Below are positions 2,826 through 29,157 of a stretch of DNA of 64,000 bases, piece after piece (the first letter of the stretch is position 1; each line of letters opens with the position of its first letter). The stretch lies in NCBI GenBank assembly GCA_964559985.1, contig CAZLJX010000004.1:24571-88570 (forward strand), in the 5' to 3' direction. Below the pieces are notes generated by a model. The model saw only the letters and a program-made list of their open reading frames with translations, searched no databases and had not been told where the DNA came from. This stretch comes from an uncultured Bacteroidales bacterium (GTDB lineage Bacteria > Bacteroidota > Bacteroidia > Bacteroidales > CAZLJX01). The position numbers and the translations under genes are program-made.

Positions 2826-3668
2826 ATGTTTACAAACGAAGATCTGAACCGGTTTATTGCAACATTAAAAACTGCATCAAACTATGATTTTTCTGACTAT
2901 TCAGAGAAATCGTTCCGGCGCCGGGTTGAAAAAATTCTTACCGATTATAAATTGGATATCAATTTGTTAATTAGTAAGATTACCAAAGACCAGGTTTTTC
3001 TCGAAAGGGTTGTGAAAGATATTACCGTCAATACCACCGAGCTTTTCAGAGATCCCGAATTGTGGACAACCTTAAAATACAGAATTCTACCGAATTTCAA
3101 AAAAAATAAATCAATATTTATCTGGCATGCCGGCAGTTCAAGCGGACAGGAAATTTATTCGATGCTCATTTTGCTGGCTGAACTGGATTTATTTGAAAAA
3201 GCCAAGGTTTTTGCTACCGATATCAATACCGATATGCTTGAACTGGCCAAAAAAGGGGAATACCGCTACCGGTTTAATCTTAACTACCTTGATAATTTTG
3301 ACAAAGTGCTGAAAGAAAATCCCTATAACTATGAAGATAAAAAGGACGTTGATTACGGAAAATATTTCGATATCGATAAGGTGAAAGACTCCATCACCAT
3401 GAAAAAATTTCTGCGCGATAAAACCATTTTCCGAAAACACGACCTGGTAAACGATAAAAATATTTTCTATTCAAAATTCGATATTATTTTTTGCCGGAAT
3501 GTGATTATCTATTTCAACAATAACCTTCAGAACCGCGTTATAGAAATGTTTTGTAACAACCTTTACCGCGATGGTTACCTGATACTGGGTGCACATGAAA
3601 GCATTCTTGGCCCTATTGCCAACAATTTTGAGCGTACCAAAGGTTTGTATAAGAAAAAATCATTTTAA
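2826..3668 (+). CDS. cheR: CheR-type protein-glutamate O-methyltransferase (canonical motifs)
   Basis: 280 aa. Motifs TELFRD, IWHAGSSSGQEIYS (compare WSAGCSTGEEPYS), VFATDIN, DIIFCRNVIIYF and GYLILGAHES. Confidence 0.9.
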   Translation: MFTNEDLNRFIATLKTASNYDFSDYSEKSFRRRVEKILTDYKLDINLLISKITKDQVFLERVVKDITVNTTELFRDPELWTTLKYRILPNFKKNKSIFIWHAGSSSGQEIYSMLILLAELDLFEKAKVFATDINTDMLELAKKGEYRYRFNLNYLDNFDKVLKENPYNYEDKKDVDYGKYFDIDKVKDSITMKKFLRDKTIFRKHDLVNDKNIFYSKFDIIFCRNVIIYFNNNLQNRVIEMFCNNLYRDGYLILGAHESILGPIANNFERTKGLYKKKSF

Positions 3669-3677
3669 TAAGCAATA

Positions 3678-4505
3678 ATGATGGTTCAGGACATAGGCAT
3701 AGTCGATACGAAAAAAATTATCAGTGTTATCAAAGATATTCACAACTTTGACCTGAGTAATTTTGCCCTGACCACATTTAAACGCAGGGTGTTGAGAATT
3801 ATTCAGGTATTTAATTTCCAGAATGTTACAGTTTTAATTTCCAAGCTCGAAGAAGATAAAAGCTTTTTTGAAAAATTTCTGGATGAATTGCTGATTGAAC
3901 ATACTGAGTTATTTCGTGACCCTTCCCTGTGGCGTATTCTCAGAGATGTGTACATTCCTGAATTAAGACGCAACAGGGATGTGAAAGTCTGGTTTCCGAT
4001 CACCACCTCGGGAGATGAAGTGCATACTTTTACCATTGTTTTAAAAGAATTAGGATTACTTGATGAATTCAGAATTCTGGTAACAGGCTTTTCAGAGCGA
4101 ATCCTTAACCAGGTAAAGGCCGGTGGCCAGTACGATCTGAAAAAAATTGAAGCAAGTGAGGCAAATTATAAAAGGTATTCCGATCGTTTTGAATTATCTG
4201 ACTATTTTACATCAAGCAACAGTAAAGCTGTTTTCGGCAGTGAATTATTGAAAAATACCGAATTTAAAGTCATCGATTCGGTTGAAACAGAACCTCCGGG
4301 TGGTTTCAAACTTGTAATCTGCCGCAATCAGCTTCTCTATTTCAACCAGTCACTGCACGAAATAGTAGTTAAAAACCTGGCTGAATCGTTAATCGGCTCT
4401 GGTTATCTGGTTCTTGGTTCAAAAGAAAATATGGAAGGTTGCTCAGCTTCAAGCCGTTTTATTCTGATAAATCGTGAAGAAAAAATTTATAAAAAAAAGG
4501 CATAA
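3678..4505 (+). CDS. Divergent CheR paralogue with degenerate SAM-binding motifs
   Basis: 275 aa. It keeps TELFRD and ICRNQLLYF, but motif I reads VWFPITTSGDEVHT and the ATDI acidic post-I position reads VTGF. It starts 9 nt after CheR1. Confidence 0.75.
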   Translation: MMVQDIGIVDTKKIISVIKDIHNFDLSNFALTTFKRRVLRIIQVFNFQNVTVLISKLEEDKSFFEKFLDELLIEHTELFRDPSLWRILRDVYIPELRRNRDVKVWFPITTSGDEVHTFTIVLKELGLLDEFRILVTGFSERILNQVKAGGQYDLKKIEASEANYKRYSDRFELSDYFTSSNSKAVFGSELLKNTEFKVIDSVETEPPGGFKLVICRNQLLYFNQSLHEIVVKNLAESLIGSGYLVLGSKENMEGCSASSRFILINREEKIYKKKA

Positions 4506-4508
4506 ATA

Positions 4509-5069
4509 ATGATTAAAGCAATTATCATAGGTGGTTCAGCGGGAAGTTTCCAGGTAGTTACGCGCATTCTATCAGCCCTGCCTGCAGGTTATCCCATTCC
4601 GGTTTTTCTTTGCCTTCACCGGTTAAAACATGTCAGGTCAGGATTTACTGAAGCACTCTCTATAAAAGCCAACCTCCCGATTGTTGAACCCGATGACAAA
4701 GACCCGATCAAACCAGGGAAAATCTATCTTGCTCCGGCTAATTACCATATGTATATTGAGCTTGGCAACAAATTTGCCCTTTCAACCGAAGAGCCGGTAA
4801 ATCATTCGAGGCCATCGATAGATTTATCATTCTTTTCAGCTTCATATTCCTATAAAAACAAATTAATCGGAATAATTCTTTCAGGAGCCAACAAGGATGG
4901 TGCTTTGGGACTGAAAAGCGTCAAAGATTCGGGAGGTATTGCTATTGTTCAGGATCCCAAAGAATGCCAGGTGCCTACCATGACAACTGCATCGCTCAGG
5001 GCTACTAACGTTGATTATATCTTTAAAACCAATGAAATAATAAATTATCTGCTTAAATTGCAATTTTAA
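4509..5069 (+). CDS. cheB: CheB-type protein-glutamate methylesterase, catalytic domain only (no receiver)
   Basis: 186 aa. IIIGGSAGS (Ser nucleophile region), CLHRLKH (His region) and LSGANKDGALG (Asp region). There is no N-terminal REC domain. Confidence 0.85.
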   Translation: MIKAIIIGGSAGSFQVVTRILSALPAGYPIPVFLCLHRLKHVRSGFTEALSIKANLPIVEPDDKDPIKPGKIYLAPANYHMYIELGNKFALSTEEPVNHSRPSIDLSFFSASYSYKNKLIGIILSGANKDGALGLKSVKDSGGIAIVQDPKECQVPTMTTASLRATNVDYIFKTNEIINYLLKLQF

Positions 5070-5071
5070 TA

Positions 5072-5839
5072 ATGGAAACGCTGAGAAACCATAAAGCATT
5101 TATGTATTTTTTATACCTCATTTTTTTTGTGGTTGCAGTATGGCTGTTTTTTAAATTATTGCCTAACCATCAAACCGGTTCAAAGTTTGATAGTATAATG
5201 GTAATTATTCTTTGGTTGGCAGGAACAGCGTTTTTTATCTTTTCATTGTTAAACACTCAACCTGAAAAAGAGATACAGAATATTGATGACAGCCATGAGC
5301 AACTGGAATCAAAGGTTGAAGACATGGTGAAGGAAACCGCCCAGCAATTATCGCAGACACGAAAAATGCAACTGGAAAAAATTTCAAATCATATTTTCAA
5401 TTCACTCAACCATTTGACAAACCGGGAAACATTTGCTGAAAAATTCCTGATTAACCTGGCACGTGAATTCGAACTTGTTCAGGCACTGATATTCTGGAAT
5501 AAACCCGGAGAAGAACTTTACGAAGTATTAGCAACCTATTCATACTACCGCGAAGAAAAACCCGAAGCATTGCACCCGGGCATTGGCCTTTCGGGACAGG
5601 CTATCAAAGATAAGAAAGCAATGTTTGTCAGTGATGTTCCTGAAAAATACGGAAAAATCATTTCGGGTCTGGGAGCTTCAAAACCGCTTTTTTTAGGATT
5701 AATCCCAGCTATCGAAAATGAAACAGTAACTGGGTTGATTGAAGTAGCATCGTTTGTTGATTGGACTGAAGAACAACAATATATTCTGGAAGAACTGACC
5801 AATATAGCAGCAAAAAAAATTGCAGCATTAAATGCATAA
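5072..5839 (+). CDS. Membrane-anchored coiled-coil/GAF-domain protein
   Basis: 255 aa. Two N-terminal hydrophobic helices, a charged helical linker and a C-terminal GAF-like region (GLSGQAIKDKKAMFVSDV...TGLIEVASF). It starts 2 nt after the CheB stop. Confidence 0.7.
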   Translation: METLRNHKAFMYFLYLIFFVVAVWLFFKLLPNHQTGSKFDSIMVIILWLAGTAFFIFSLLNTQPEKEIQNIDDSHEQLESKVEDMVKETAQQLSQTRKMQLEKISNHIFNSLNHLTNRETFAEKFLINLAREFELVQALIFWNKPGEELYEVLATYSYYREEKPEALHPGIGLSGQAIKDKKAMFVSDVPEKYGKIISGLGASKPLFLGLIPAIENETVTGLIEVASFVDWTEEQQYILEELTNIAAKKIAALNA

Positions 5840-5846
5840 ATGAAAT

Positions 5847-8477
5847 ATGGGTTCAAATAAACATATAGATTTTTTTATTCGCAATGTCTTACTTAAAACC
5901 ATTGGAAAAATCCAATTCCCTATTGGCGGTGTATTGTTTGGTTTTCTGTTTATTCTGGCCGGTATTTTAATTGAATATTTCATCAGGGATTATCCTTTCA
6001 CTTTAAATGCCATAGCATTAATGCATGGTCAGAATCCGTTGCTTTATATAATTGATTTTGCACCCATTATTTTAGGCATGGCTAGCGTCTTTTTCAGGAG
6101 AAATTTTTATTTCCGTCTTTCTGAACAGGAAAAACTATTGGCCGAAAAAGAGGAGCTAATCAAGAAAAATGCACTCATTGCCCGTAAAATAGGCGAAGGT
6201 GATTTATCATTCAATAAAGAAGACATTGAAACTGATGACCAGATTGGCAATGCACTCCTGGTAATGCGTGATAATCTATTGACAACCAAGCTGAAAGAAA
6301 ACGAACAAAGCTGGATTGCTGCCGGCAAAGAAAAAATATCAAATATTTTACGACTTCATACAGACCTCAATGTTCTCTCATACGAAACCCTGGTGAACCT
6401 GATAAACTATATTAAAGTTATTCAAGGAGCCTTTTATATTTATGATGAAGAACAGAATATCCTGACCAATATGGCCACCTATGCCTATAACCGGCGCAAA
6501 TATATCAAACAGGAATTCCGCATAGGGCAAGGTCTTATAGGACAGGCAGCCTATGAAATGGGAACCATTTTCCGCCGGCAGATTCCAGAAGATTATATAA
6601 GCATTACTTCAGGAATTCTGGGTGACCAGAAACCTTCAGCCATATTGATAGTACCTTTAATCAGTGATGATAAACTTCAGGGTGCCCTCGAATTTGCCTC
6701 CATCAAAGACGATATTACTCCTTTAAAAATAAAATTTGTCGAAGAACTGAGCGATATCATAGCCCGTACTATTTTTAACCTGAAAGTCAGTGCCAAAACC
6801 ACCAAACTACTTCAGGATGCCCAGAAAATGACTGAAGAACTGAAGGAGAATGAAGAAGAGCTCAGGCAGAATGCAGAAGAAATGAGGGCTACTCACGAGG
6901 AACTTGAAAAATCGAACGTAAAACTTGAACACCAGGTTCTTGAAGTTGAAAATGCGCAGAAAAGGTTACATTCACTGCTCGAAAATGCCTCTGAAATTAT
7001 CTCTATCTACGACGAAAACCTGAAACTTACCTACGAAAGCCCGTCGGTTACCAATATCTTAGGGTACACCCCTGAAGAAATGATGGAAGGAAAAGACTTT
7101 GAACGTCTGTCGACCAAAGGGGAAACCGACATGAAAGAGATGTTCAATGAGCTGATTAAAAATCCCACCGAAACATATACCATCCAATACACTTACATGA
7201 AAAAGGATGGTAAAAAAATATTTATCGAAGCAACCGGACGAAATCTGCTGCATGACCCTGCAATAAACGGAATCATTATTAATTCGCGCGATATCACCGA
7301 ACGGAAAAGAGCCGAAAAAGAGGAGCGTATGAAAAGCAAAATGCAATCGCTCTCCGAAAACTCGCCCGACATGATTATCCGCCTGAGCCCCGCTGGTCAG
7401 TTTTTCTATGCCAACCCGATTGTAAAAATTTTTACCGGGGTCGATACCAACGAGGTAATGAATAAAACCATTGAAGAAGTTAACTTTAACGAACAGATTG
7501 TTACCTTTTTCAAAGATACCATCAAGCAAATAGTCAAGAACCAGACTAAAATCAATATTGAAATTACTTTTCCGACCAATTTCGGAAATCGTATCATGCA
7601 GGTAAATGCCATTCCGGAATTTAACGAAGAAAAAGAACTTGAAAGTGTACTTTTTGTAGCCCACGACATTACAGAGCGTAAAAATATTGAACTTGAAATA
7701 CAGGAAAAAAACAAAAAAATCACCGAAAGCATTAATTATGCCGAACGTATTCAAAGCTCAATACTGCCCGATACAAAATATATACAGGAATTTCTGCCAA
7801 AATCATTTATTTTTTACAAACCCCGCGATGTGGTAAGCGGCGATTTTCCATGGTTTTTCAAAAAAGAAGAAGACATTTACATAGCCGTTGTCGATTGCAC
7901 CGGGCATGGCGTTCCGGGAGCATTACTTTCATTTATAGGCTATTTCCTGCTCAATAATATTGTTGATCATGATTATGACTGGACTGCCGGAGAAGTGCTC
8001 GATCATCTGCATCAGAATGTAAGACGCACTTTGAAACAGGACCGTGCCGATGCCAATGCCCGTGATGGGATGGATATTGCCCTGGTAAAAATAAACCTGC
8101 AAAAAAACAAATTGCAGTATAGTGGTGCACACAGGCCTTTATATCTGCTGCGCAAAAGCGAGCTTACCGAATTTGAAGGCAACCGCAAAGCCATTGGTGG
8201 CATTCCGCATGCAAAAAAACCCGAAAGCAGTTTTGTTAATCATGTGATAGAAATTACCCCTGGCGATAAAGTATTTTTCTTTTCCGATGGCCTTACCGAC
8301 CAGTTGGGCGGACCCGACCGTCAGAAATATTCTCCCCGCCGGATAAGGGAAATAATTATTGAAAATTCAGATTTTTCAATGACACAATTTTCTAATTATT
8401 TTGCAAGAGATTTTAAAAAATGGAAAGGCGACAACAAACAAATTGATGATGTATTGCTTATTGGCATTGAATTTTAA
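5847..8477 (+). CDS. Membrane sensor PP2C (SpoIIE/RsbU-type) serine phosphatase with HAMP-like, GAF and two PAS domains (SiaA-like)
   Basis: 876 aa. N-terminal TM helices, GDLSF...DDQIGNAL..MRDNL (HAMP-like), a GAF domain (GLIGQAAYEMGTIF) and two PAS blocks each ending DIT(E)RK. The PP2C motifs are VSGDFPWF, VDCTGHGVPGALLS, DGMDIALV, FFFSDGLTDQ and DDVLLIGIEF. Confidence 0.9.
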   Translation: MGSNKHIDFFIRNVLLKTIGKIQFPIGGVLFGFLFILAGILIEYFIRDYPFTLNAIALMHGQNPLLYIIDFAPIILGMASVFFRRNFYFRLSEQEKLLAEKEELIKKNALIARKIGEGDLSFNKEDIETDDQIGNALLVMRDNLLTTKLKENEQSWIAAGKEKISNILRLHTDLNVLSYETLVNLINYIKVIQGAFYIYDEEQNILTNMATYAYNRRKYIKQEFRIGQGLIGQAAYEMGTIFRRQIPEDYISITSGILGDQKPSAILIVPLISDDKLQGALEFASIKDDITPLKIKFVEELSDIIARTIFNLKVSAKTTKLLQDAQKMTEELKENEEELRQNAEEMRATHEELEKSNVKLEHQVLEVENAQKRLHSLLENASEIISIYDENLKLTYESPSVTNILGYTPEEMMEGKDFERLSTKGETDMKEMFNELIKNPTETYTIQYTYMKKDGKKIFIEATGRNLLHDPAINGIIINSRDITERKRAEKEERMKSKMQSLSENSPDMIIRLSPAGQFFYANPIVKIFTGVDTNEVMNKTIEEVNFNEQIVTFFKDTIKQIVKNQTKINIEITFPTNFGNRIMQVNAIPEFNEEKELESVLFVAHDITERKNIELEIQEKNKKITESINYAERIQSSILPDTKYIQEFLPKSFIFYKPRDVVSGDFPWFFKKEEDIYIAVVDCTGHGVPGALLSFIGYFLLNNIVDHDYDWTAGEVLDHLHQNVRRTLKQDRADANARDGMDIALVKINLQKNKLQYSGAHRPLYLLRKSELTEFEGNRKAIGGIPHAKKPESSFVNHVIEITPGDKVFFFSDGLTDQLGGPDRQKYSPRRIREIIIENSDFSMTQFSNYFARDFKKWKGDNKQIDDVLLIGIEF

Positions 8478-8510: not shown

Positions 8511-9095
8511 ATGGATGGAAATAACATCGACGTAAAAGGATTCCTCGAATTCGTTTATAGCTTTTATAAAACGATGAAGGATCATGATATCATCCTGGTT
8601 TATGAAGGTGAAGTTACACACCAGATTACCAAGGCTTTTACATCATTAACTGAAACCAATATGGAACAACAGATGGAGGCCAGCTCCACCCAGAAAAAGG
8701 TTTTCCATGTCATGGTTGAAGCCTTGCAGAATATCAGCAAACATGCTGATAATCCGGATGGTAGTGTCAGAAATGACGGCAGAGGGATATTTATGCTGAG
8801 TAAAAACAGTGAAGAATATACCATCACTACAGGAAACGTTTGCGAACGTTCAAAAATTCCACGCATGACAGAAACCCTTGAAAAAATTAACAGCCTTGAC
8901 AAAGAAGGACTTAAAGAGATGTATAAAAGCCAGATAAAGGAAGGAATTATCTCAAACCGGGGTGGTGCGGGACTTGGGTTTATTGATATTGCAAAAAAAA
9001 CCGGTAATAAACTGCATTACTCATTTCTGACCATCAACAATGAATATTCGTTTTTTGTATTAATGACTAAGATATCAAGAAGTAGTAATTTATAA
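8511..9095 (+). CDS. SiaB-like / anti-sigma-factor-type (GHKL ATPase fold) serine-threonine protein kinase
   Basis: 194 aa. N-box-like EALQNISKHA and G-box GGAGLGFIDIAKK. Its size and its position after a PP2C gene and before a DUF1987 gene match the SiaB arrangement. Confidence 0.75.
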   Translation: MDGNNIDVKGFLEFVYSFYKTMKDHDIILVYEGEVTHQITKAFTSLTETNMEQQMEASSTQKKVFHVMVEALQNISKHADNPDGSVRNDGRGIFMLSKNSEEYTITTGNVCERSKIPRMTETLEKINSLDKEGLKEMYKSQIKEGIISNRGGAGLGFIDIAKKTGNKLHYSFLTINNEYSFFVLMTKISRSSNL

Positions 9096-9107
9096 AAACA
9101 TACAATT

Positions 9108-9491
9108 ATGGAAGTAATCAAAATTGTTGGCACCGACGACACTCCCAGTGTAACCCTTGATGCTGATAACGATATTTTCGAAATTAGCGGCAGATCATTG
9201 CCCGAAGACGTCTCGGCATTTTACGAGCCGATTCTCGATTGGCTTGAACGCTATGCAGAAAATACCAATCCGAAAACCATCTTCAATTTTAAACTGGTAT
9301 ATTTCAATACCGCCTCATCAAAAATGCTCCTCGATATTCTGCTGAAACTTGAAGAAATGTATGAAGGTGGCAAAGATGTGCTGGTTAGATGGCATTTCCC
9401 CGAAGATGATGAAGATATGGAAGAAGCAGGACAGGAATATGCTGATATTGTTGAGGTTCCGTTTGAACAGGTAAGCTATTCCATGGACTAA
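9108..9491 (+). CDS. DUF1987 / SiaC-like phosphoprotein (partner-switch substrate)
   Basis: 127 aa. TPSV.LD......EISGRSLPED, YEPILDWL, and the FNTASSKMLLDIL motif containing the Thr that is the phospho-site in the SiaC family. Confidence 0.75.
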   Translation: MEVIKIVGTDDTPSVTLDADNDIFEISGRSLPEDVSAFYEPILDWLERYAENTNPKTIFNFKLVYFNTASSKMLLDILLKLEEMYEGGKDVLVRWHFPEDDEDMEEAGQEYADIVEVPFEQVSYSMD

Positions 9492-9542
9492 CAGATGTCT
9501 TTTTATTGCAAAACCAATTTGCTATTTTAAACCGCTTAATGC

Positions 9543-12500
9543 ATGAGTGAAGAGATTCTAAAAGCGTTGATGCAACTGTTTGCCATCATTGCAAAACAAG
9601 ATGAAGGCGTTGAATCAAACGAAATTGAATATGTCAGTAATTTCCTGAATCAACAGTTAAATGCCGAAGCTGCCCGGGAATATCTTCAACTTTTTTATGA
9701 ACATGCCGGTTTAAAAGAAGGAAAAGAATCTGAAGGAAAAGAAAAAGACGAACCGAAACTTACCTCGGTAAAAGACTCGGTTAGAATTCTGGGTATTTGC
9801 AAAAAAATCAATAAAAAACTTACCCAGGAACAAAAAGTGGTTGTGCTTGTCCGCCTTTGGGAATTGGTGAATACCGACCGAAAATTTTCCGACCAGCGCA
9901 TGGCCATTATTAACACCGCAGCCGAAGTATTTAATATTACTACGGAAGAATTTAAAAGCGTTGAATCTTTTGTCATTAAAGATGATCCTGCTTCACTCGA
10001 CACCAGCAATATACTCATAATAAACGACAAAGAGAAAACCGGCGAGTTATCGAAACACATCCGTACCGAAGCACTCGACGGACTCCTGTTGATTTTACAG
10101 ATAAAAAGCGTTGATCTGTACTTTCTGCGATATACCGGACATGAAGAAATATTTCTGAATGGTTTACCTGTAAATTCAAAGCGTATTTATTTGTTTGCCA
10201 ACGGAAGTGCTATCCGCCTGCCAAAAGGCAAACCCATTTATTACAGCGACGTTGTTGCCCGGTTTATGGCCGATATTACTTCGGCGCATATTTCTTACAA
10301 TGTCAGAAACCTTGAATACCGCTTCCCAAATGGTGCTCTGGGATTGCGAAATATTAACCTTTCTGAAGAACACGGGAAACTTATTGGCATCATGGGTGCC
10401 AGCGGGGCAGGAAAAACTACCCTGCTGAATGTTTTAACCGGTATTGAAAATCCTTCTGCCGGCGAAGTGGTCATTAACAGTATTAACCTTCATACACAAC
10501 ACGATAAAATTGAAGGTGTTATCGGTTACATTCCACAGGACGATCTGCTTATTGAAGAACTTACTGTTTTCGAAAACCTGTATTATAACGCCAAACTTTG
10601 TTTTAAAGATAAAACCGAAGAAGAATTAATTTCGCTGGTCGATAAAACACTGGCCAGTTTGGGCCTGCTTGACCGTAAAATGCTCAAAGTGGGTTCACCC
10701 CTCAATAAAACCATCAGCGGCGGACAACGAAAAAGGCTTAATATTGCCCTTGAACTCATTCGTGAACCATCCATCCTGTTTGTCGATGAGCCTACTTCGG
10801 GGCTTTCGTCACGCGATTCGGAAAATGTAATGGACCTGCTGCGTGAACTTGCACTGAAAGGAAAATTGATTTTTGTTGTCATTCACCAGCCATCGTCCGA
10901 CATTTATAAAATGTTTGACAAAATGATTATTCTCGATACAGGTGGATACCTTATATATTATGGTAACCCCGTTGAAGCGGTAACATTTTTCAAAAAGGCT
11001 GATATGCAGATTAACAGCGATGTTGGCGAATGCCCGACCTGTGGTAGCGTAAATCCGGAACTTATTTTCAATATCATAGATGCACAGGTTGTAGATGAAT
11101 TCGGCCGTTACACCGACAAACGAAAGGTGATGCCCGAACAGTGGGAAAATCTTTATGGCAGTAAGATAAAACCAGAAATTATTGAAGATGCACATGAAGA
11201 ACCTCCACGGTCACTCGATATTCCAAACTGGATAAACCAGTTTAAAATATATACCATCCGCGACTTTGTTTCAAAAATCAGCAACCGGCAGTATATAATT
11301 CTTAACCTGCTCGAAGCACCCGTACTGGGCCTGATATTATCATTCCTTATCCGCTACATTGCCGATCCGAGTTCGAAAATTTATATTTTCAGGGATAACG
11401 AAAACATTCCTCCATATATCTTCATGAGCCTTATTGTTGCCATGTTTCTCGGATTTATGGTGAGTGCCGAAGAAATTTTCCGCGACCGTAAAATCCTTAA
11501 GCGGGAAGCATTTCTCAACCTGAGCCGGTCAAGTTATCTTGTCTCAAAAGTGCTTATTATGCTTATCATTTCTGCCATACAAAGTTTATTCTATGTCATG
11601 GTAGGCAATCTAATATTGGGCATCCACGGCTTGTGGTTCGAATACTGGTGGGCATTGTTTACCATTGCAGCTTTCTCGAATATGCAGGGACTCAATATTT
11701 CATCCGCTTTCAATTCGGCGGTTACCATTTATATTATGATTCCGCTGCTTATGATTCCGCAGATGGCCTTAGGAGGGGCTATGTTCAGTTTCGACAAACT
11801 AAACCGGGTTATCGGCAGCGTTGATAAAGTGCCCATGGTAGCTGAATTTATTGCCACTAGGTGGTCATACGAAGCCCTCATGGTTAGACAGTTCAAAGAC
11901 AATAAATTTGAAAAAAAATATTACGAGCTCGAAAAAGATATCAGTGTGTCTGACTTCAAGCAGGTATATTATTTTGCCGAAATTACCGAACGGCTCGACT
12001 TTGTTAGCCAGAATATTAAAAGCAAAGATCCCGAAATAAAAAAACAGGTACTCATGGACCTGGCACTTTTAAAACATGAACTTGCAAAAGAAAAAAGAAA
12101 AGTGCCCGAAATTCAGTTTAATTTTATTGATTCACTTACCTATGATGTTTTTAATGACTATGTTGCATACAATACCAATGATTATATAGAGAACCTGAAA
12201 TCATACTACAGCCAGAAATTTGAAGCTGCCACCGATAAAAAAGAAACTATCATAGAATACCTTAACGAAAACCGCCCTGGCCTGTATAACAAAACACGAA
12301 ATCATTACCATAATGAAGCCGTCCAGGAAATTGTTACCAATCTTTACGAAAAAAATAAAATCATCCGTTATAAAGAAAAACTGGTACAACAATCCGATCC
12401 CATTTTTCAGGACCCCGAACCGGAAGGATTTTTAAGTTTCAGGGCGCATTTTTATGCACCTAAAAAACATTTTGCCGGAAAATATTTCGATACATTCTGG

Positions 12501-12596
12501 TTTAACCAGGTTATTGTATGGATTATGACCATTTTACTTTATATTGCCCTTTATTATGATGCCCTGAAAAAACTATTAAATTTATCGGGAAAATAA
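9543..12596 (+). CDS. ABCG/ABC-2-type transporter (fused ATPase and permease) with a ~270-aa N-terminal non-transporter extension
   Basis: 1017 aa. Walker A GASGAGKTTLLN, signature SGGQRKRLNIA, Walker B ILFVDEPTSGLS, then a multi-TM ABC-2 region. The N-terminus (LMQLFAIIAKQDEGVESNEIEYV) looks TerB-like by eye, but this is unverified. Confidence 0.85.
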   Translation: MSEEILKALMQLFAIIAKQDEGVESNEIEYVSNFLNQQLNAEAAREYLQLFYEHAGLKEGKESEGKEKDEPKLTSVKDSVRILGICKKINKKLTQEQKVVVLVRLWELVNTDRKFSDQRMAIINTAAEVFNITTEEFKSVESFVIKDDPASLDTSNILIINDKEKTGELSKHIRTEALDGLLLILQIKSVDLYFLRYTGHEEIFLNGLPVNSKRIYLFANGSAIRLPKGKPIYYSDVVARFMADITSAHISYNVRNLEYRFPNGALGLRNINLSEEHGKLIGIMGASGAGKTTLLNVLTGIENPSAGEVVINSINLHTQHDKIEGVIGYIPQDDLLIEELTVFENLYYNAKLCFKDKTEEELISLVDKTLASLGLLDRKMLKVGSPLNKTISGGQRKRLNIALELIREPSILFVDEPTSGLSSRDSENVMDLLRELALKGKLIFVVIHQPSSDIYKMFDKMIILDTGGYLIYYGNPVEAVTFFKKADMQINSDVGECPTCGSVNPELIFNIIDAQVVDEFGRYTDKRKVMPEQWENLYGSKIKPEIIEDAHEEPPRSLDIPNWINQFKIYTIRDFVSKISNRQYIILNLLEAPVLGLILSFLIRYIADPSSKIYIFRDNENIPPYIFMSLIVAMFLGFMVSAEEIFRDRKILKREAFLNLSRSSYLVSKVLIMLIISAIQSLFYVMVGNLILGIHGLWFEYWWALFTIAAFSNMQGLNISSAFNSAVTIYIMIPLLMIPQMALGGAMFSFDKLNRVIGSVDKVPMVAEFIATRWSYEALMVRQFKDNKFEKKYYELEKDISVSDFKQVYYFAEITERLDFVSQNIKSKDPEIKKQVLMDLALLKHELAKEKRKVPEIQFNFIDSLTYDVFNDYVAYNTNDYIENLKSYYSQKFEAATDKKETIIEYLNENRPGLYNKTRNHYHNEAVQEIVTNLYEKNKIIRYKEKLVQQSDPIFQDPEPEGFLSFRAHFYAPKKHFAGKYFDTFWFNQVIVWIMTILLYIALYYDALKKLLNLSGK

Positions 12597-12653: not shown

Positions 12654-13565
12654 ATGGATAAGCGTTTCATTTATCTTTTTTACAGTCTGCTGTTAATATT
12701 GTCTGCATATTCCTGTAACAATTCAGGCAGTTCTGATTCCGGAGATGTTGATATACCGGATTCCATTTTTGAGAAAAAACCTTTGCTGGTATCGAACGAA
12801 CAGATGGAAAACATCATCCAGAATATTTCGTCACCGGTTGAAATGGCTGCTTTGCTTAAAAATACAGGAGTTCCGTTTCAACGTAAAATTCTGGCATCAA
12901 CAAACAGGATTGATAAATTAAATACAAATTTCAAAAGAGCCCTTAACCTGGGTATTATGGGTGCCGATCTTGGATACCTGAATATGTATGAAAAAACAGG
13001 ATCAGTGATGGAAAACCTTTCATCTATCAAATCTTTATCGGAAGAATTAAAAATAGGGCAGTTTTTTGATTTCAGCACCATCAAGCGGCTTGCTATGAAT
13101 AGCGAAAACCTTGATTCATTGATGTATATTTCTGTTGCCAGTTTCAACAACATGGATGAATACCTGCGTAAGGTAAACCGTACAAACATCAGCTCACTGA
13201 TTGTAACCGGAATATGGATTGAAGGGATGTATCTTTCGACACAGGTGGCCAAAGAAGCACCAAAAAAAGAAATTGTTGAAAGGATAGGCGAACAGAAAAT
13301 CATACTAAACGACCTTTTAATTATTTTAAAAAATTACAGCAGCGACCGCAATTTTTATGAACTGGTACAGGATATTGAAAGAATAAAAAAAGAATACCAG
13401 GAGGTAAAAATTACTTATGAAGTTGGCGAGCCCGAATCAAAAGAGGTTGACGGGATGCTTATCATTGTTCAGAACGAAAAAAGTATTGTAACAATGAATG
13501 ACGAACAGCTCGTCAATATTACCCGCGTTGTTGAAGAAGTTCGTAACAAATTAATCAATATGTAG
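12654..13565 (+). CDS. Hypothetical lipoprotein
   Basis: 303 aa. Signal peptide with lipobox LSAYSC. No recognisable catalytic motif. Confidence 0.6.
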   Translation: MDKRFIYLFYSLLLILSAYSCNNSGSSDSGDVDIPDSIFEKKPLLVSNEQMENIIQNISSPVEMAALLKNTGVPFQRKILASTNRIDKLNTNFKRALNLGIMGADLGYLNMYEKTGSVMENLSSIKSLSEELKIGQFFDFSTIKRLAMNSENLDSLMYISVASFNNMDEYLRKVNRTNISSLIVTGIWIEGMYLSTQVAKEAPKKEIVERIGEQKIILNDLLIILKNYSSDRNFYELVQDIERIKKEYQEVKITYEVGEPESKEVDGMLIIVQNEKSIVTMNDEQLVNITRVVEEVRNKLINM

Positions 13566-13567
13566 TT

Positions 13568-13999
13568 ATGAGGAGTTTTCTACTTTCTATAATAGCCTTG
13601 TTTATAATCGGCACTATTCAGACGCAGGCACAGACCGATGAGTTGGTAAACACCTGTGCCCTGGATATCGGAAACGCTACCTACCTGAAAGATTTTAAAG
13701 TTAAACTTCAGCAAAGTAATGTAAAACCTGCTCCTTCAGCCAAATTTTCGGTGGTGCTTAACAAAGGCACTGTTTATAAAATAAATGTTTGCAATGCCCA
13801 GGGTTACGAAGGCAAAGCTGTTGTAAAGCTTATGGAAAACAATACCCTGCTTGGCACAAACCAGAAAACCGACGGTTCTTTCCTCGATGCATTAGGATTT
13901 GCCTGTCAGAAAACCGGAGTTTACCAGATACAGATTTCTTTTGATGATGGAAAAGAGGGAGCGGCTGTAGCTATTCTCTCATTCATTAATAAAAGCTAA
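13568..13999 (+). CDS. Hypothetical secreted protein
   Basis: 143 aa. N-terminal signal peptide (LFIIGTIQTQAQT). It starts 2 nt after the previous stop. Confidence 0.55.
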   Translation: MRSFLLSIIALFIIGTIQTQAQTDELVNTCALDIGNATYLKDFKVKLQQSNVKPAPSAKFSVVLNKGTVYKINVCNAQGYEGKAVVKLMENNTLLGTNQKTDGSFLDALGFACQKTGVYQIQISFDDGKEGAAVAILSFINKS

Positions 14000-25185: not shown

Positions 25186-28100
25186 ATGGTCAGAATTTTT
25201 GTAAATATCTTCATTTGCTTTATTCTTATTATCATTTCAGGATTTTCGGAAGCTGAAGGCCAGGAAAAAGGGAAACCTTTCAGCAGGCATTACGGCCCAA
25301 AAGATTATAAAGGAGGAACCCAGAACTGGGCTGTGGTGGAAGATAATCACGGAATGATATACATTGCCAACCAGCAAGGCGTGATACAATATGATGGTGC
25401 TGAATGGCATGCTATACCTAATAAAAATAAAAGTACAATCCGCTCACTTGCCCTTGACGACCATGGGCAAATTTGGGTAGGCGCCTATGGTGAAATGGGT
25501 TTTCTTGCTCCCGAAAAAAATGGCGCTCTGACATTTCAGTCCATCACCAGCCTGGTTGACAAAGAACACATTAACTTTGCTGAAGTCTGGAATATTCAAC
25601 CTGCCGACAGCAGCATTTATCTGCTTACCGACAATTATTTGTTCCGCTACCGTCAGCATACCCTCAAAGCATGGACATGTAAAGGAGAGTATTTCTATAC
25701 CGAAATGGCTTGTCGTAATCATTTTTTATTCCAGGAAATTGGAGGAGGCCTTCATGCCATTATCAACGACTCATTGGTTTCAGTTACCGGAAGCGATTTT
25801 TTCAGGCAAAGCCGTATTCATGCATTTTTCGACCTGGGCGGTGATACTGTGCTCATTGGAACAAGGTCGCAAGGTTTATTTACAGCCGTTGTTGAAATCG
25901 CTGGTTATAAAATCCATTTAAGACAACTTCATTCCATCGAAGGAGAGGCTACAGAATATTTTATAAAACATTCTTTATACCATGGAATAAAATTACTGAA
26001 TGGTGATATGGCATTTGCCACCATCAGGGGTGGTGTTATTTTGATCGATAAAAACTTCAGAATAAAAGAAATTTATACCAGCCAGACTGCCATCGGTCAC
26101 GAAGCCTGCTATTACCTTATCCAGGCCAAGGATAAATCTTTATGGGTAGCTTTAGATAACGGATTGGCGCATATCGAGTTAAACAGCCCATTTCGCTACT
26201 GGGACAATGAATCGGGATATAAAGGTACCATTACCGATATTAACCGTCACAATAAAACGCTATATATTTCCACCGCTTCGGGAGTTTACTATCTGGATGA
26301 AACTGCTGGTACCTATATTTCACGTTTTATACAAATTCCTGATTTCAGCCAGCAAACATGGTGTCTGCTTAAGGTTAACGACCTGAGATATAAAGGCGAT
26401 AGTGCTTTACTGGCCAGTACAAGCGAAAATATTTTCCTGATTGAAAACCACCGGGCACGTTCAATATATTCAAATAAAAGTAATTACGAAATTTTCCGTT
26501 CACCACGCAACCCCAGGTTGTTATATGCCGGAACACGTAACGGCCTGCAGGTCCTTGAATTTAAAACAGGAAAATATAGACTAAAAAGTCATATCAACGG
26601 CATTAATTATGAAGTGCGTGGCCTGGCCGAAGACAAATCAGGCGATTTATGGGCAAGTGTCAGTTATAAAGGAGTAGCACGGATATCGTTTACCGATAGT
26701 TCATTTTCACGTTATTCCATCGAATATTTCGATACTACCGACGGGTTGCCCGACCTGAAACAGGTTACACCGGTTTTCCTGGCAAACGACCTTGTATTTG
26801 CTTCGGATAGCGGAATTATGACTTTTGTGCCTGAAAACCGGAAGTTTACATTTTATCAGAAACTGGGCAGCAACCTTTCCAGGCTGCAGCTTAACCGCTT
26901 TGCCACCGGCAAAAACGGCCATATTTATATCAATGGGAATATCGTTTTAAAACCTTACGGAAACGGATATATTGCAGATAGTACCCCTTTCAGGCGCATT
27001 CCGGCAACCGAATCAGATGCTGTTTTTGCCGATCATGATGGAAAAATATGGATTGGAAATCCCGACGGCCTTTATGTTTATAAACCCGAGCTTTACAAAC
27101 CTTCCGAAATTGTATTTGAAGCACTTATCAGGGAAGCATCCCTTTCGAGCGGTCAAAAAATTTTTATGGGCCATGGAAAACCCGAAAAACCTGAAATCGA
27201 TTATAAAAACAATTCACTGATATTCAAATATGCTGCTCCGTTTTTCGATGTTGAAAATCAGACCCTGTACAGTTATATGCTTGAGGGTTTTGACCTGGGT
27301 TGGTCGGAATTTACAGGTGAAAAACGCAAGGAATATACCAATCTTTCTGAAGGGGAATATACTTTTAAAGTCAGGGCAAAAAATATTTACGGGCAAATCA
27401 GTACAACAGCAACCTACCATTTTATCATCCTTCCACCCTGGTTCAGGACAAACTGGGCTTTTGCCATTTATGCCATATTAATTATTCTGATTTTCAGGCT
27501 TTTTATCAAACTTCGTACCCGCCAGATTTTACGCGAAAAAGATAAACTGGAAAAAATAATCGAAGAACGGACTGCCCAGATTAACATGCAAAAAGAAGAA
27601 TTGCTTTCGCAGGCCGAACAACTTAAGGCCATTAATGCTGAACTTGAGAAACTCTCAATTGTTGTTCGCGAAACAGCCACGGCAGTTACCATGTTCGATA
27701 ATACCGGAAAATTTCTATGGGTCAATGAAGGTTTTACAAGAATGTATGGCTATACTTTCGACCAGTTTGTCACCGAAAGAAGTGATAATATTTTCAACTG
27801 CGACCTGGCTCCCAATATTAAAAGACTGATTGCGGGCTGCATTCAGAATAAAAAAACCATTATTTACGATTTCTTTACCACCACCAGAAGCGGAGAAGGG
27901 TTATGGGCACAAACAACCCTTACACCGGTTTTGAATGACCTTGGCGAAACCATCAGCCTTATTGCCATTGATTCTGATATTACAAGGCTCAAAGATGCAG
28001 AACAGGAAATATTTTACCAGAAAGATAAAATCGAAAAACAAACACAACTGCTTGAGCAAAAAAACATTGAACTCGAAAAACTTTCTATTGTTGCCCGCGA

Positions 28101-29157
28101 AACCGATAATGCCATCATTATTATGGATTCAAAAGGCAATTTTGAATGGGTAAACGAAGGTTTTACACGAATGTATGGCTACACCATTGATCGTTTGATT
28201 GCCGAAAAAAGTCATAACATTGTCGGCGCCAGTGCCAACCTGAACATCAAAGACCTGATCAACGTATGGTTTGGTAACAAAAAGCCTATTGTTTACGAAT
28301 CAATGAATTCAACACGCGATGGCCGTTTAATCTGGACACAGACTACCCTGACGCCAATCCTCGATCGCAGCGGAAACCTGGTAAAGATGGTTGCTATCGA
28401 TACCGATATCACTAAACTGAAAGAAGCACAGAAACAAATTGAGGAACAACGTAATGAGCTTGAAAAAGCCAATGCCACAAAAGATAAATTCTTCAGTATT
28501 ATTGCCCATGATTTACGAAGCCCTTTTGCCTCACTGCTCAGTCTGATCAATATTCTCAACGATGAATTTGATAATCTGGATGAGGCGCTAAAGAAAAAAT
28601 ATATCGGTTCGGTACAGGAAGGGGCCAAACGTACATTCAGCCTGCTCGAAAACCTGTTAGACTGGTCGCGGATCCAGAAAGGGCACATCAAATTTACCCC
28701 GGCGCACCTCGAAATGGCTTTTCTCATTCAGGAAAGTATTTCGTTACATGCTGAAATTATCACCAAGAAAAATATTGCAGTACAAACGGATATTCCCGAT
28801 CAGGTGACCGTTTTTGCCGATGAAAATATGATTCGCACCATACTGCGTAATTTAATTTCAAATGCTATAAAATTCAGTTTCCCGGAAGGAAAAATTGAAA
28901 TTTCGTACCAAAAAAACGAAAAGGAAATTGTTTTCATGGTTCGCGATCATGGTACAGGTATTCAGCCCGATGACCTGCAAAAACTTTTCCGCATTGATAT
29001 ACATCATACCACCCTGGGCACGGCTAAAGAACGTGGCACGGGTCTTGGACTGGTTTTATGCCGCGAATTTGCCGAACGCAACAACGGACGCATCTGGGTT
29101 GAAAGCGAACCGGGGGAAGGCAGTACTTTCTATTTCTCACTGCCGTTATCGGAATAA
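25186..29157 (+). CDS. Sensor histidine kinase with a periplasmic two-component-regulator propeller/Y_Y_Y region, TM helix, two PAS domains, HisKA and HATPase_c
   Basis: 1323 aa. Repeated beta-propeller-like segments (IWVGAYGEMGF, LWVALDNGLAHI, IWIGNPDGLYVY) and YSYMLEGFDLGWSE..EYTNLSEGEYTFKVRAKN (Y_Y_Y). A TM helix (WAFAIYAILIILIF) is followed by the H-box FFSIIAHDLRSP and the ATPase boxes NLISNAIKFS, DHGTGI and GTGLGL. Confidence 0.9.
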   Translation: MVRIFVNIFICFILIIISGFSEAEGQEKGKPFSRHYGPKDYKGGTQNWAVVEDNHGMIYIANQQGVIQYDGAEWHAIPNKNKSTIRSLALDDHGQIWVGAYGEMGFLAPEKNGALTFQSITSLVDKEHINFAEVWNIQPADSSIYLLTDNYLFRYRQHTLKAWTCKGEYFYTEMACRNHFLFQEIGGGLHAIINDSLVSVTGSDFFRQSRIHAFFDLGGDTVLIGTRSQGLFTAVVEIAGYKIHLRQLHSIEGEATEYFIKHSLYHGIKLLNGDMAFATIRGGVILIDKNFRIKEIYTSQTAIGHEACYYLIQAKDKSLWVALDNGLAHIELNSPFRYWDNESGYKGTITDINRHNKTLYISTASGVYYLDETAGTYISRFIQIPDFSQQTWCLLKVNDLRYKGDSALLASTSENIFLIENHRARSIYSNKSNYEIFRSPRNPRLLYAGTRNGLQVLEFKTGKYRLKSHINGINYEVRGLAEDKSGDLWASVSYKGVARISFTDSSFSRYSIEYFDTTDGLPDLKQVTPVFLANDLVFASDSGIMTFVPENRKFTFYQKLGSNLSRLQLNRFATGKNGHIYINGNIVLKPYGNGYIADSTPFRRIPATESDAVFADHDGKIWIGNPDGLYVYKPELYKPSEIVFEALIREASLSSGQKIFMGHGKPEKPEIDYKNNSLIFKYAAPFFDVENQTLYSYMLEGFDLGWSEFTGEKRKEYTNLSEGEYTFKVRAKNIYGQISTTATYHFIILPPWFRTNWAFAIYAILIILIFRLFIKLRTRQILREKDKLEKIIEERTAQINMQKEELLSQAEQLKAINAELEKLSIVVRETATAVTMFDNTGKFLWVNEGFTRMYGYTFDQFVTERSDNIFNCDLAPNIKRLIAGCIQNKKTIIYDFFTTTRSGEGLWAQTTLTPVLNDLGETISLIAIDSDITRLKDAEQEIFYQKDKIEKQTQLLEQKNIELEKLSIVARETDNAIIIMDSKGNFEWVNEGFTRMYGYTIDRLIAEKSHNIVGASANLNIKDLINVWFGNKKPIVYESMNSTRDGRLIWTQTTLTPILDRSGNLVKMVAIDTDITKLKEAQKQIEEQRNELEKANATKDKFFSIIAHDLRSPFASLLSLINILNDEFDNLDEALKKKYIGSVQEGAKRTFSLLENLLDWSRIQKGHIKFTPAHLEMAFLIQESISLHAEIITKKNIAVQTDIPDQVTVFADENMIRTILRNLISNAIKFSFPEGKIEISYQKNEKEIVFMVRDHGTGIQPDDLQKLFRIDIHHTTLGTAKERGTGLGLVLCREFAERNNGRIWVESEPGEGSTFYFSLPLSE
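27640..28497 (+). repeat. Internal tandem duplication (2 x 429 nt) encoding two paralogous coiled-coil+PAS units
   Basis: Unit 1 (27640-28068) begins ELEKLSIVVRET...WVNEGFTRMYGYT...QTTLTPVL...IAIDSDITRLKDAEQEI. Unit 2 (28069-28497) begins ELEKLSIVARET...WVNEGFTRMYGYT...QTTLTPIL...VAIDTDITKLKEAQKQI. By eye, roughly half of the residues are identical. Confidence 0.7.

Follow-up and report, generated by a model that had tools for sequence, protein, structure and literature searches.

What do the two chemotaxis adaptation enzymes act on where no chemoreceptor is encoded beside them? In textbook accounts of chemotaxis, adaptation is the work of CheR and CheB, and to our knowledge every experimentally proven substrate of the pair is a methyl-accepting chemotaxis protein (MCP). 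The question is raised by a 64,000-nucleotide stretch of contig CAZLJX010000004.1 from an uncultured Bacteroidales bacterium (hereafter the window), in which genes for CheR and CheB stand upstream of a sensor protein of 876 amino acids (aa) (5847-8477; this gene and all genes of its cluster described below are on the forward strand). By Pfam and NCBIfam matches, the sensor consists of a transmembrane (TM) segment, a helical region, a GAF domain, a linker module, two PAS domains and a PP2C phosphatase domain of the SpoIIE/SiaA-like type. The helix that joins GAF to the first PAS domain (PAS1) carries four glutamate pairs in heptad register. We favour the reading, fairly probable on the comparative evidence given below, that this helix is methylated by the co-encoded CheR/CheB system. 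The locus thereby bears on the open question of non-MCP substrates of CheR and CheB.

A conserved glutamate-pair helix between GAF and PAS

The segment MTEELKENEEELRQNAEEMRATHEELEKS is encoded by window positions 6828-6914 and forms sensor residues 328-356, between GAF (173-309) and PAS1 (373-485). The second PAS domain (PAS2) occupies residues 498-612 and SpoIIE/PP2C residues 675-875. Translation gives the pairs E330/331, E337/338, E344/345 and E351/352 at a constant spacing of 7 residues, exactly as the original prediction described them. The third pair reads EEMRAT (E344-T349; 6876-6893) and fits, as had also been noted, the EExxA[ST] hexapeptide. On this match and its conservation, EEMRAT is the best candidate methyl-accepting site, with E345, or else E344, as the acceptor. 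In the heptad register the pairs lie at the exposed positions b and c. Hydrophobic residues (L/M) are confined to position d (L332, L339, M346, L353 and L360), small or polar residues occupy positions a and g, and glutamate makes up 38% of the segment.

The segment is far from random, and its conservation settles the matter. The bare EExxA[ST] hexapeptide is common, at 0.157 per 1,000 aa in the ORF (open reading frame) segments of 82 related loci (750,752 residues), and therefore what carries the signal is the register together with its conservation. A three-pair run (EE-x5-EE-x5-EE) occurs only here in all six frames of the window. In the same 750,752 residues, every three-pair run (119/119) and every four-pair run (36/36) lies inside the module of which this segment is the core, with none outside. 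The sensor was compared with 120 orthologues at 62-99% identity. The core is near-invariant in the 121 orthologues, whose overall identity is about 63%, with the consensus M-T-x-E-L-x-E-N-E-E-E-L-R-Q-N-A-E-E-M-R-A-T-H-E-E-L-E-x-S/T-N, and all four pairs are kept within the Bacteroidales orthologues. A wider set of 59 species-level sensors from Bacteroidales and Cytophagales sharpens this picture. Among the 30-aa stretches of these sensors the core ranks third in conservation; only the PP2C catalytic motif and the end of PAS1 rank higher. Only E331, E337, E344, E345, E351 and E352 are near-invariant across it. E330 (N in 18, E in 14, Q in 14) and E338 (E in 31, V in 21, Q in 6) drift, so strict conservation as pairs holds for pairs 3 and 4 only. 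At the EEMRAT site, EE is present in 56/59 sensors, alanine at +4 in 47/59 and threonine at +5 in 57/59. Glutamate is also exchanged for glutamine, E336 being Q in 21/59 sensors, E338 in only 18/121 orthologues and position 331 in 53/310 copies of the module family. Such exchange is common to the module and to MCP methylation sites. The whole sensor has four conserved [EQ][EQ] pairs, three of them within the module. The fourth is EERMKS (residues 492-497; 7320-7337) in the PAS1-PAS2 linker helix, just after a DITERK motif. It resembles the EELEKS of the module; a hidden Markov model (HMM) of the module finds no copy there, nor is the PAS2-PP2C linker helix a detectable copy. Across all proteins of the conserved gene cluster, no conserved [EQ][EQ] pair other than EEMRAT has a small-residue tail.

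The full conserved module spans residues 311-376 (NLKV...QKRLHS; 6777-6974). It scores 76.8 bits with profile A1/A2, which finds a single copy in the window. The segment had at first been taken for a local peculiarity of one protein. Instead, a search of 1.84 billion proteins with the 66-residue profile returned at least 1,231 cluster representatives at E<=1e-3, mostly from Bacteroidota. In 310 in-register copies the shared core is x-E-E-L-[KR]-x-Q-E-E-E-[LM]-R-Q-N-x-E-E-[LM]-x-A-T-Q-E-E. Pair 2 is EE in 279/310, pair 3 in 294/310, and EExxA[ST] is found in 207/310; since the copies were picked by profile similarity, these figures are partly circular. The module always stands directly N-terminal to a PAS domain.

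Among the best 150 module proteins, one group comprises GAF-module-PAS(-PAS)-PP2C sensors like the present one. A second has the form GAF-(module-PAS)n, with up to nine copies (P0122), or carries the module in tandem every ~72 residues (P0123). A third, of few members, ends in a histidine kinase (P0229, P0260) or combines Reg_prop/Y_Y_Y input with PP2C output (P0155). Fused CheR or CheB was found in none of these 150. Some proteins (P0122, P0123, P0121, P0126) have 4-9 module copies alternating with PAS domains; the tandem array of P0123 comprises six copies with no PAS domain in between. P0122 (L084, 10001-15970; 100-kb record CP111063.1) adjoins a small HisKA-HATPase protein, and its available flanks contain no CheR or CheB. 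In precomputed annotations, PF28175 is assigned to some sensors (P0052-P0112) and PF28159 to some CheB/CheR fusion proteins (P0299-P0389); these might be recent families covering the coils. Even without methylation, the module is a signalling helix not described before, both very widespread and highly conserved, and it merits definition as a family.

AlphaFold2 modelling with 46 orthologues predicts one continuous helix over residues 292-374, from the last GAF helix to PAS1, and no hairpin. The confidence score (pLDDT) falls from 79 to 38 along this helix in the monomer model, a drop expected for a dimeric coiled coil. The helix is presumably a parallel dimeric coiled coil in the protein. Among solved structures, none contains the module.

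Operon linkage with CheR and CheB

Genomes were scanned with one genome per GTDB species, and the best 80 loci were examined. All are from Bacteroidota except one 2-kb contig of Muiribacteriota. Sixty-one loci encode a PP2C-type sensor, 58 of them with at least 3.5 kb of sequence upstream, and in 57/58 CheR and CheB are encoded immediately upstream in a fixed order. The original prediction had proposed that the EE register would be conserved in orthologues beside CheR and CheB, and in these loci it is, with EEMRAT almost invariant. Cultivable carriers of such loci include Chryseolinea lacunae, Ohtaekwangia kribbensis, Marivirga spp. and Bernardetia sp.

The conserved cluster proved larger than originally described and reads CheR(-CheR)-CheB-TMGAF-sensor-SiaB-SiaC-TerB/ABC. 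CheR1, CheR2 and CheB are encoded 1.8-4.0 kb upstream of the segment, in line with the original prediction. The companion statement that no MCP lies nearby also stands. MCPsignal (PF00015) has no match in the window at E<=0.01, and the Tsr signalling domain (residues 261-520, phmmer) has no match at E<=10 among window ORFs of at least 60 aa.

CheR1 (2826-3668; Pfam CheR, 133.5 bits) is a protein-glutamate O-methyltransferase with intact S-adenosylmethionine (SAM)-binding motifs. Aligned to B. subtilis CheR (5FTW), it keeps ATDI, a GxGxE-like motif and CRNVIIYF. Its paralogue CheR2 (3678-4505) is degenerate in these motifs by Pfam and motif alignment, with VTGFS in place of ATDI(D) and WFPITTSGDE in place of W(S/H)AGCS(T/S)GEE. 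Judging from these substitutions, CheR2 has probably lost SAM binding and is possibly non-catalytic. In Bacteroidales loci the CheR encoded next to CheB shows the same degeneration; in Cytophagales loci there is one CheR, and its motifs are intact. Loci with two CheR genes thus keep one intact copy, and loci with one keep theirs intact. CheB (4509-5069; Pfam CheB_methylest, 162 bits) is a methylesterase catalytic domain only, with no receiver domain, and its Ser/His/Asp positions are kept in an alignment with T. maritima CheB (3SFT). A stand-alone receiver-domain gene lies upstream of CheR1 (2067-2447). It is probably not part of the system, even though CheB has no receiver domain of its own, as a homologue is present in only 1/54 related loci.

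A small TM-GAF protein (5072-5839; Pfam, locus comparison) is always encoded between CheB and the sensor. It is poorly conserved (0.35) and has no conserved glutamate pairs. This protein and all others of the cluster were considered as alternative substrates and rejected, since none has a conserved small-tailed glutamate pair.

Downstream of the sensor follows a SiaB-family protein kinase (DUF6272; 8511-9095; NCBIfam SiaB_fam_kinase, 169.9 bits, cutoff 85) and then a SiaC-family regulatory phosphoprotein (9108-9491; Pfam SiaC, 141 bits, cutoff 24.5). In related loci SiaB likewise follows the sensor, and the position of SiaC and the gene order are conserved. SiaC is the presumed substrate of both PP2C and SiaB. 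The next gene encodes a TerB-domain ABC-2 transporter (9543-12596; Pfam), which in 45/45 loci comes after SiaC, separated from it by a median of 47 nt. The cluster closes with two small ORFs of 303 and 143 aa (12654-13999), whose N-termini resemble signal peptides and which are found downstream in 44/45 loci. The first (12654-13565) has no Pfam match; the second occupies 13568-13999. No GGDEF/diguanylate cyclase gene is present in the cluster, and the TerB-ABC transporter is invariably next, so the transporter is the likely output. It may be the partner-switch output as the target of SiaC.

In many of the related operons, a second module protein is encoded between CheR1 and CheR2. It has about 790 aa, with an N-terminal region followed by GAF-module-PAS-PAS and no output domain (L002, 3428-5803; at the same place in L003-L006, L010, L011, L015, L016, L021, L023, L028, L034, L039 and L053). 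It is absent from the window, which has only a 380-bp gap (2448-2825) before CheR1. In four loci (L031, L035, L059 and L060, first ~6 kb), an extra CheR-HK-CheB-(GAF-module protein) cluster, HK being a histidine kinase, directly precedes the CheR-CheR-CheB-PP2C operon. These loci thus have two sets of CheR/CheB and two kinds of module protein next to each other. Elsewhere in the window, a 1,323-aa Reg_prop/Y_Y_Y-PAS-PAS-HisKA-HATPase sensor kinase (25186-29157) has no module. After it, at ~30600-60100, comes a long run of same-strand ORFs that resembles a gene cluster for polysaccharide biosynthesis; among its products are a Wzx-like polysaccharide-synthesis protein and an asparagine synthase.

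Proposed methylation of the helix and its alternatives

No other protein of the cluster has a conserved small-tailed pair. Therefore, if the enzymes act on a cluster protein, the helix, and EEMRAT above all, is the best candidate. The best reading of the segment is as the core of a conserved module of the methyl-accepting coiled-coil (MAC) type, served by separate CheR and CheB genes. CheR1 would methylate one or more of the b/c glutamates, E345 in EEMRAT first and then E352, E337 or E331, and the receiver-less CheB would remove the methyl groups. Up to eight negative charges per helix would be neutralised, and i/i+4 salt bridges with R340, R347 and K333 would be broken. In a marginal coiled coil, with a core hydrophobic at d only, this could shift stability or register. 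Transmission of the TM/GAF input to PAS-PAS-PP2C would then be retuned, and phosphatase activity on SiaC reset against the SiaB kinase. SiaC in turn would probably control the TerB-ABC transporter, which is always encoded next to it. A Ser/Thr partner switch would thereby gain a layer of adaptation or memory, in a locus without MCP, CheA or CheW.

A broader version of this reading is more tentative, and we regard it as slightly more doubtful than likely. It combines methylation of a simple dimeric coiled-coil linker, adapting a PP2C-SiaB-SiaC switch that controls TerB-ABC, with a role of the module as a portable methylation-memory cassette. The cassette, in up to nine copies per protein, would be carried by hundreds of GAF/PAS proteins scattered through genomes and be serviced in trans. 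The Bacteroidota concerned appear to be without MCP, CheA and CheW.

Several observations weigh against methylation of the helix. One comes from locus L024, a Draconibacterium orientale metagenome-assembled genome. Its sensor (9071-11701) keeps ENEEELRQNAEEMRATQEEL together with SiaB-SiaC, and neither CheR nor CheB is encoded within 9 kb upstream or 7.6 kb downstream. Among the PP2C-type loci with ample flanks, no other is without CheR, CheB and the TM-GAF protein upstream. More broadly, non-PP2C module proteins have CheR/CheB nearby in 4/21 genome loci and in 3/19 to 5/25 metagenome loci with adequate flanks. About 80% of them thus have no CheR or CheB in their flanks, and their motif is equally intact. 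The original expectation that the EE register would be lost where CheR and CheB are absent therefore fails at the level of gene neighbourhood. Several of the non-PP2C positives are themselves second module proteins inserted into one operon with a first, or lie beside a CheB-CheR-HK fusion. By our estimate, the 15-20% adjacency of non-PP2C module proteins to CheR/CheB is well above the ~1% expected for a random gene. Their scatter may be likened to that of MCP genes in chemotactic bacteria. The same scatter is equally expected of a methylation-independent signalling helix. Retention of the motif away from CheR and CheB does not refute action in trans, because MCP genes are also scattered.

The fit to known methylation helices is likewise partial. 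Of the extended MCP consensus [ASTG][ASTG]xx[EQ][EQ]xx[ASTG][ASTG], the module matches half, and at one pair only. At EEMRAT the upstream residues are R340 and Q341, which are not small, as the original prediction had pointed out. The heptad spacing holds at all four EE pairs; the A-T tail is present at one of the four (E344-T349). For the module a single helix is predicted, in contrast to the antiparallel hairpin or four-helix bundle of MCPs. On Tsr the HMM of the module gives about 0 bits, and homology to the Tsr methylation helix was rejected on this result. The module also resembles the coil of CheB/CheR fusion proteins, with an hhalign probability of 83% and the EE pairs in register (median 14 bits by HMM). 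However, a designed EELKAIK coiled coil scores 23-24 bits from either profile, at least equal to the similarity of the fusion coil. The fusion coil is accordingly not counted as a Rosetta-stone homologue. At the sequence level, the likeness of the module to the fusion coil and to Tsr appears to be one of heptad grammar and position, from which common ancestry is not demonstrable.

The conserved helix could be purely structural or signalling. In such a case it would only transmit a conformational change of GAF/PAS to the next PAS domain, or set dimer geometry. CheR and CheB would act elsewhere, on a protein in trans or on a site outside the segment, such as EERMKS. We consider this less likely than methylation of the helix, though it accords with the hundreds of module proteins that keep the motif fully intact with no CheR or CheB nearby, and with its retention in L024. 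The constant place of the module before a PAS domain, like a cap helix, would also fit, as would the lack of detectable homology to MCP methylation helices and the fourth conserved EE pair in the PAS1-PAS2 linker. Left unexplained is the 57/58 operon linkage with both CheR and CheB. No alternative substrate is visible either, there being no other small-tailed conserved glutamate pair in the cluster and no MCP in the window. Moreover, the conserved b/c glutamates are solvent-exposed, and pure packing would not fix these so strictly.

Far less probable still is that the glutamate-rich face serves as a docking surface for the degenerate CheR2, the TM-GAF protein, SiaB or SiaC, with methylation elsewhere or none at all. 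An exposed acidic face is plausible as a binding surface, CheR2 is retained in Bacteroidales despite loss of the SAM-ribose Asp motif, and the small TM-GAF protein is always co-encoded. Yet Cytophagales loci without a second CheR still keep the module, conservation of the TM-GAF protein is poor, in contrast to that of the site where it would dock, and module proteins without all these partners keep the motif. To chance, in the form of an ordinary glutamate-rich coiled coil with its EE pairs in phase, we give next to no weight. At such a glutamate content, in-phase EE pairs are not very improbable in one sequence, and the hexapeptide by itself is frequent. But the near-invariance in orthologues, the specific RQN...ATQ core in 1,231 protein clusters and the absence of such runs outside the module already refute this explanation, and it was rejected.

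Taken together, our results support in part the original claim that the segment is the best candidate substrate. CheR/CheB linkage and site conservation speak for it, and persistence of the motif away from CheR/CheB speaks against it. The locus offers a compact, testable system, with one active CheR, one CheB, one single-module sensor, EEMRAT as the best-fit site and SiaC phosphorylation as the readout. If the helix is indeed methylated, methylation adaptation would extend beyond chemotaxis receptors, as a portable device for phosphatase partner switches and generic GAF/PAS proteins. It would also explain the retention of cheR and cheB in non-flagellated Bacteroidota.

Relation to MCPs, Sia switches, CheB/CheR fusions and MAC proteins

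Like methylation helix 1 (MH1) of the classical E. coli receptors Tsr and Tar, the module has consecutive heptads, [EQ][EQ] pairs in the same phase, the EExxA[ST] hexapeptide and interchange of E and Q. The Tsr pairs 296/297, 303/304 and 310/311 stand in T-EQQAAS, L-EETAAS and M-EQLTAT. They include Q297, E304 and Q311, which we take to be the classical methylation sites. The window heptads T-EELKEN, E-EELRQN, A-EEMRAT and H-EELEKS have the same x-EE-x-x-x-x layout. The sensor differs from an MCP in having no MCPsignal domain, no CheA/CheW-binding tip and no C-terminal pentapeptide.

The output side recalls the SiaA/SiaB/SiaC/SiaD partner switch of Pseudomonas aeruginosa (Chen et al. 2020, cited in PMC9239204). 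Both systems encode a PP2C sensor phosphatase, a SiaB-family kinase and a SiaC phosphoprotein in that order. They differ in input, which is TM-GAF-module-PAS-PAS here and HAMP there. The SiaD diguanylate cyclase has no counterpart here, where TerB-ABC follows and CheR and CheB are co-encoded. The window proteins also score below the equivalog cutoffs, the sensor with 171.8 bits for prot_phos_SiaA (cutoff 700; SpoIIE, 77 bits) and SiaC with 88.9 bits for phos_prot_SiaC (cutoff 150).

A closer parallel in layout is offered by the CheB/CheR fusion proteins (KEGG 'two-component system, chemotaxis family, CheB/CheR fusion protein'; MAC1 in the terms used below), retrieved with a fragment seen in L018. 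All 120 full-length fusion proteins of this set (120/120) have a heptad EE coil between the fused enzymes and a PAS_10 domain. As in the module, the heptads start with EE followed by L and lie directly N-terminal to PAS, with EE at b/c, Leu at d, and g/a occupied by residues that are small or polar. The two differ in that the enzymes are fused there and encoded by separate genes here. In the fusions every heptad fits EExx[AS][ST], whereas one does here, and RQN...ATQ is absent there.

MAC proteins were reportedly proposed by Wuichet and Zhulin in 2010, from genomics, as non-MCP candidates for CheR and CheB. MAC1 denotes proteins with fused CheB and CheR, MAC2 those that occur together with separate CheB and CheR; both are said to combine receptor and kinase functions and to be "not experimentally characterized in any respect" (PMC6943060; bioRxiv 10.1101/2022.05.07.491037). 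The 2010 set may already include the PP2C architecture. A PP2C/SiaB/SiaC output of MAC proteins finds no mention in the accessible literature. Searches of the literature returned no paper linking CheR/CheB with SiaA/PP2C, and nothing relevant on the module motif strings or on CheR/CheB in Bacteroidetes. The present sensor shares with MAC2 that it is a non-MCP with an MCP-like heptad glutamate coil and separately encoded CheR and CheB, in a locus without MCP, CheA or CheW. It departs from MAC2 in having no kinase. By Pfam and NCBIfam it has no HisKA or HATPase domain, and its C-terminal SpoIIE/PP2C domain would feed a SiaB/SiaC partner switch and TerB-ABC. Set beside MAC2 by description, and of a kind known from prediction only, the sensor is best described as carrying a module of the MAC type whose output is a phosphatase partner switch.

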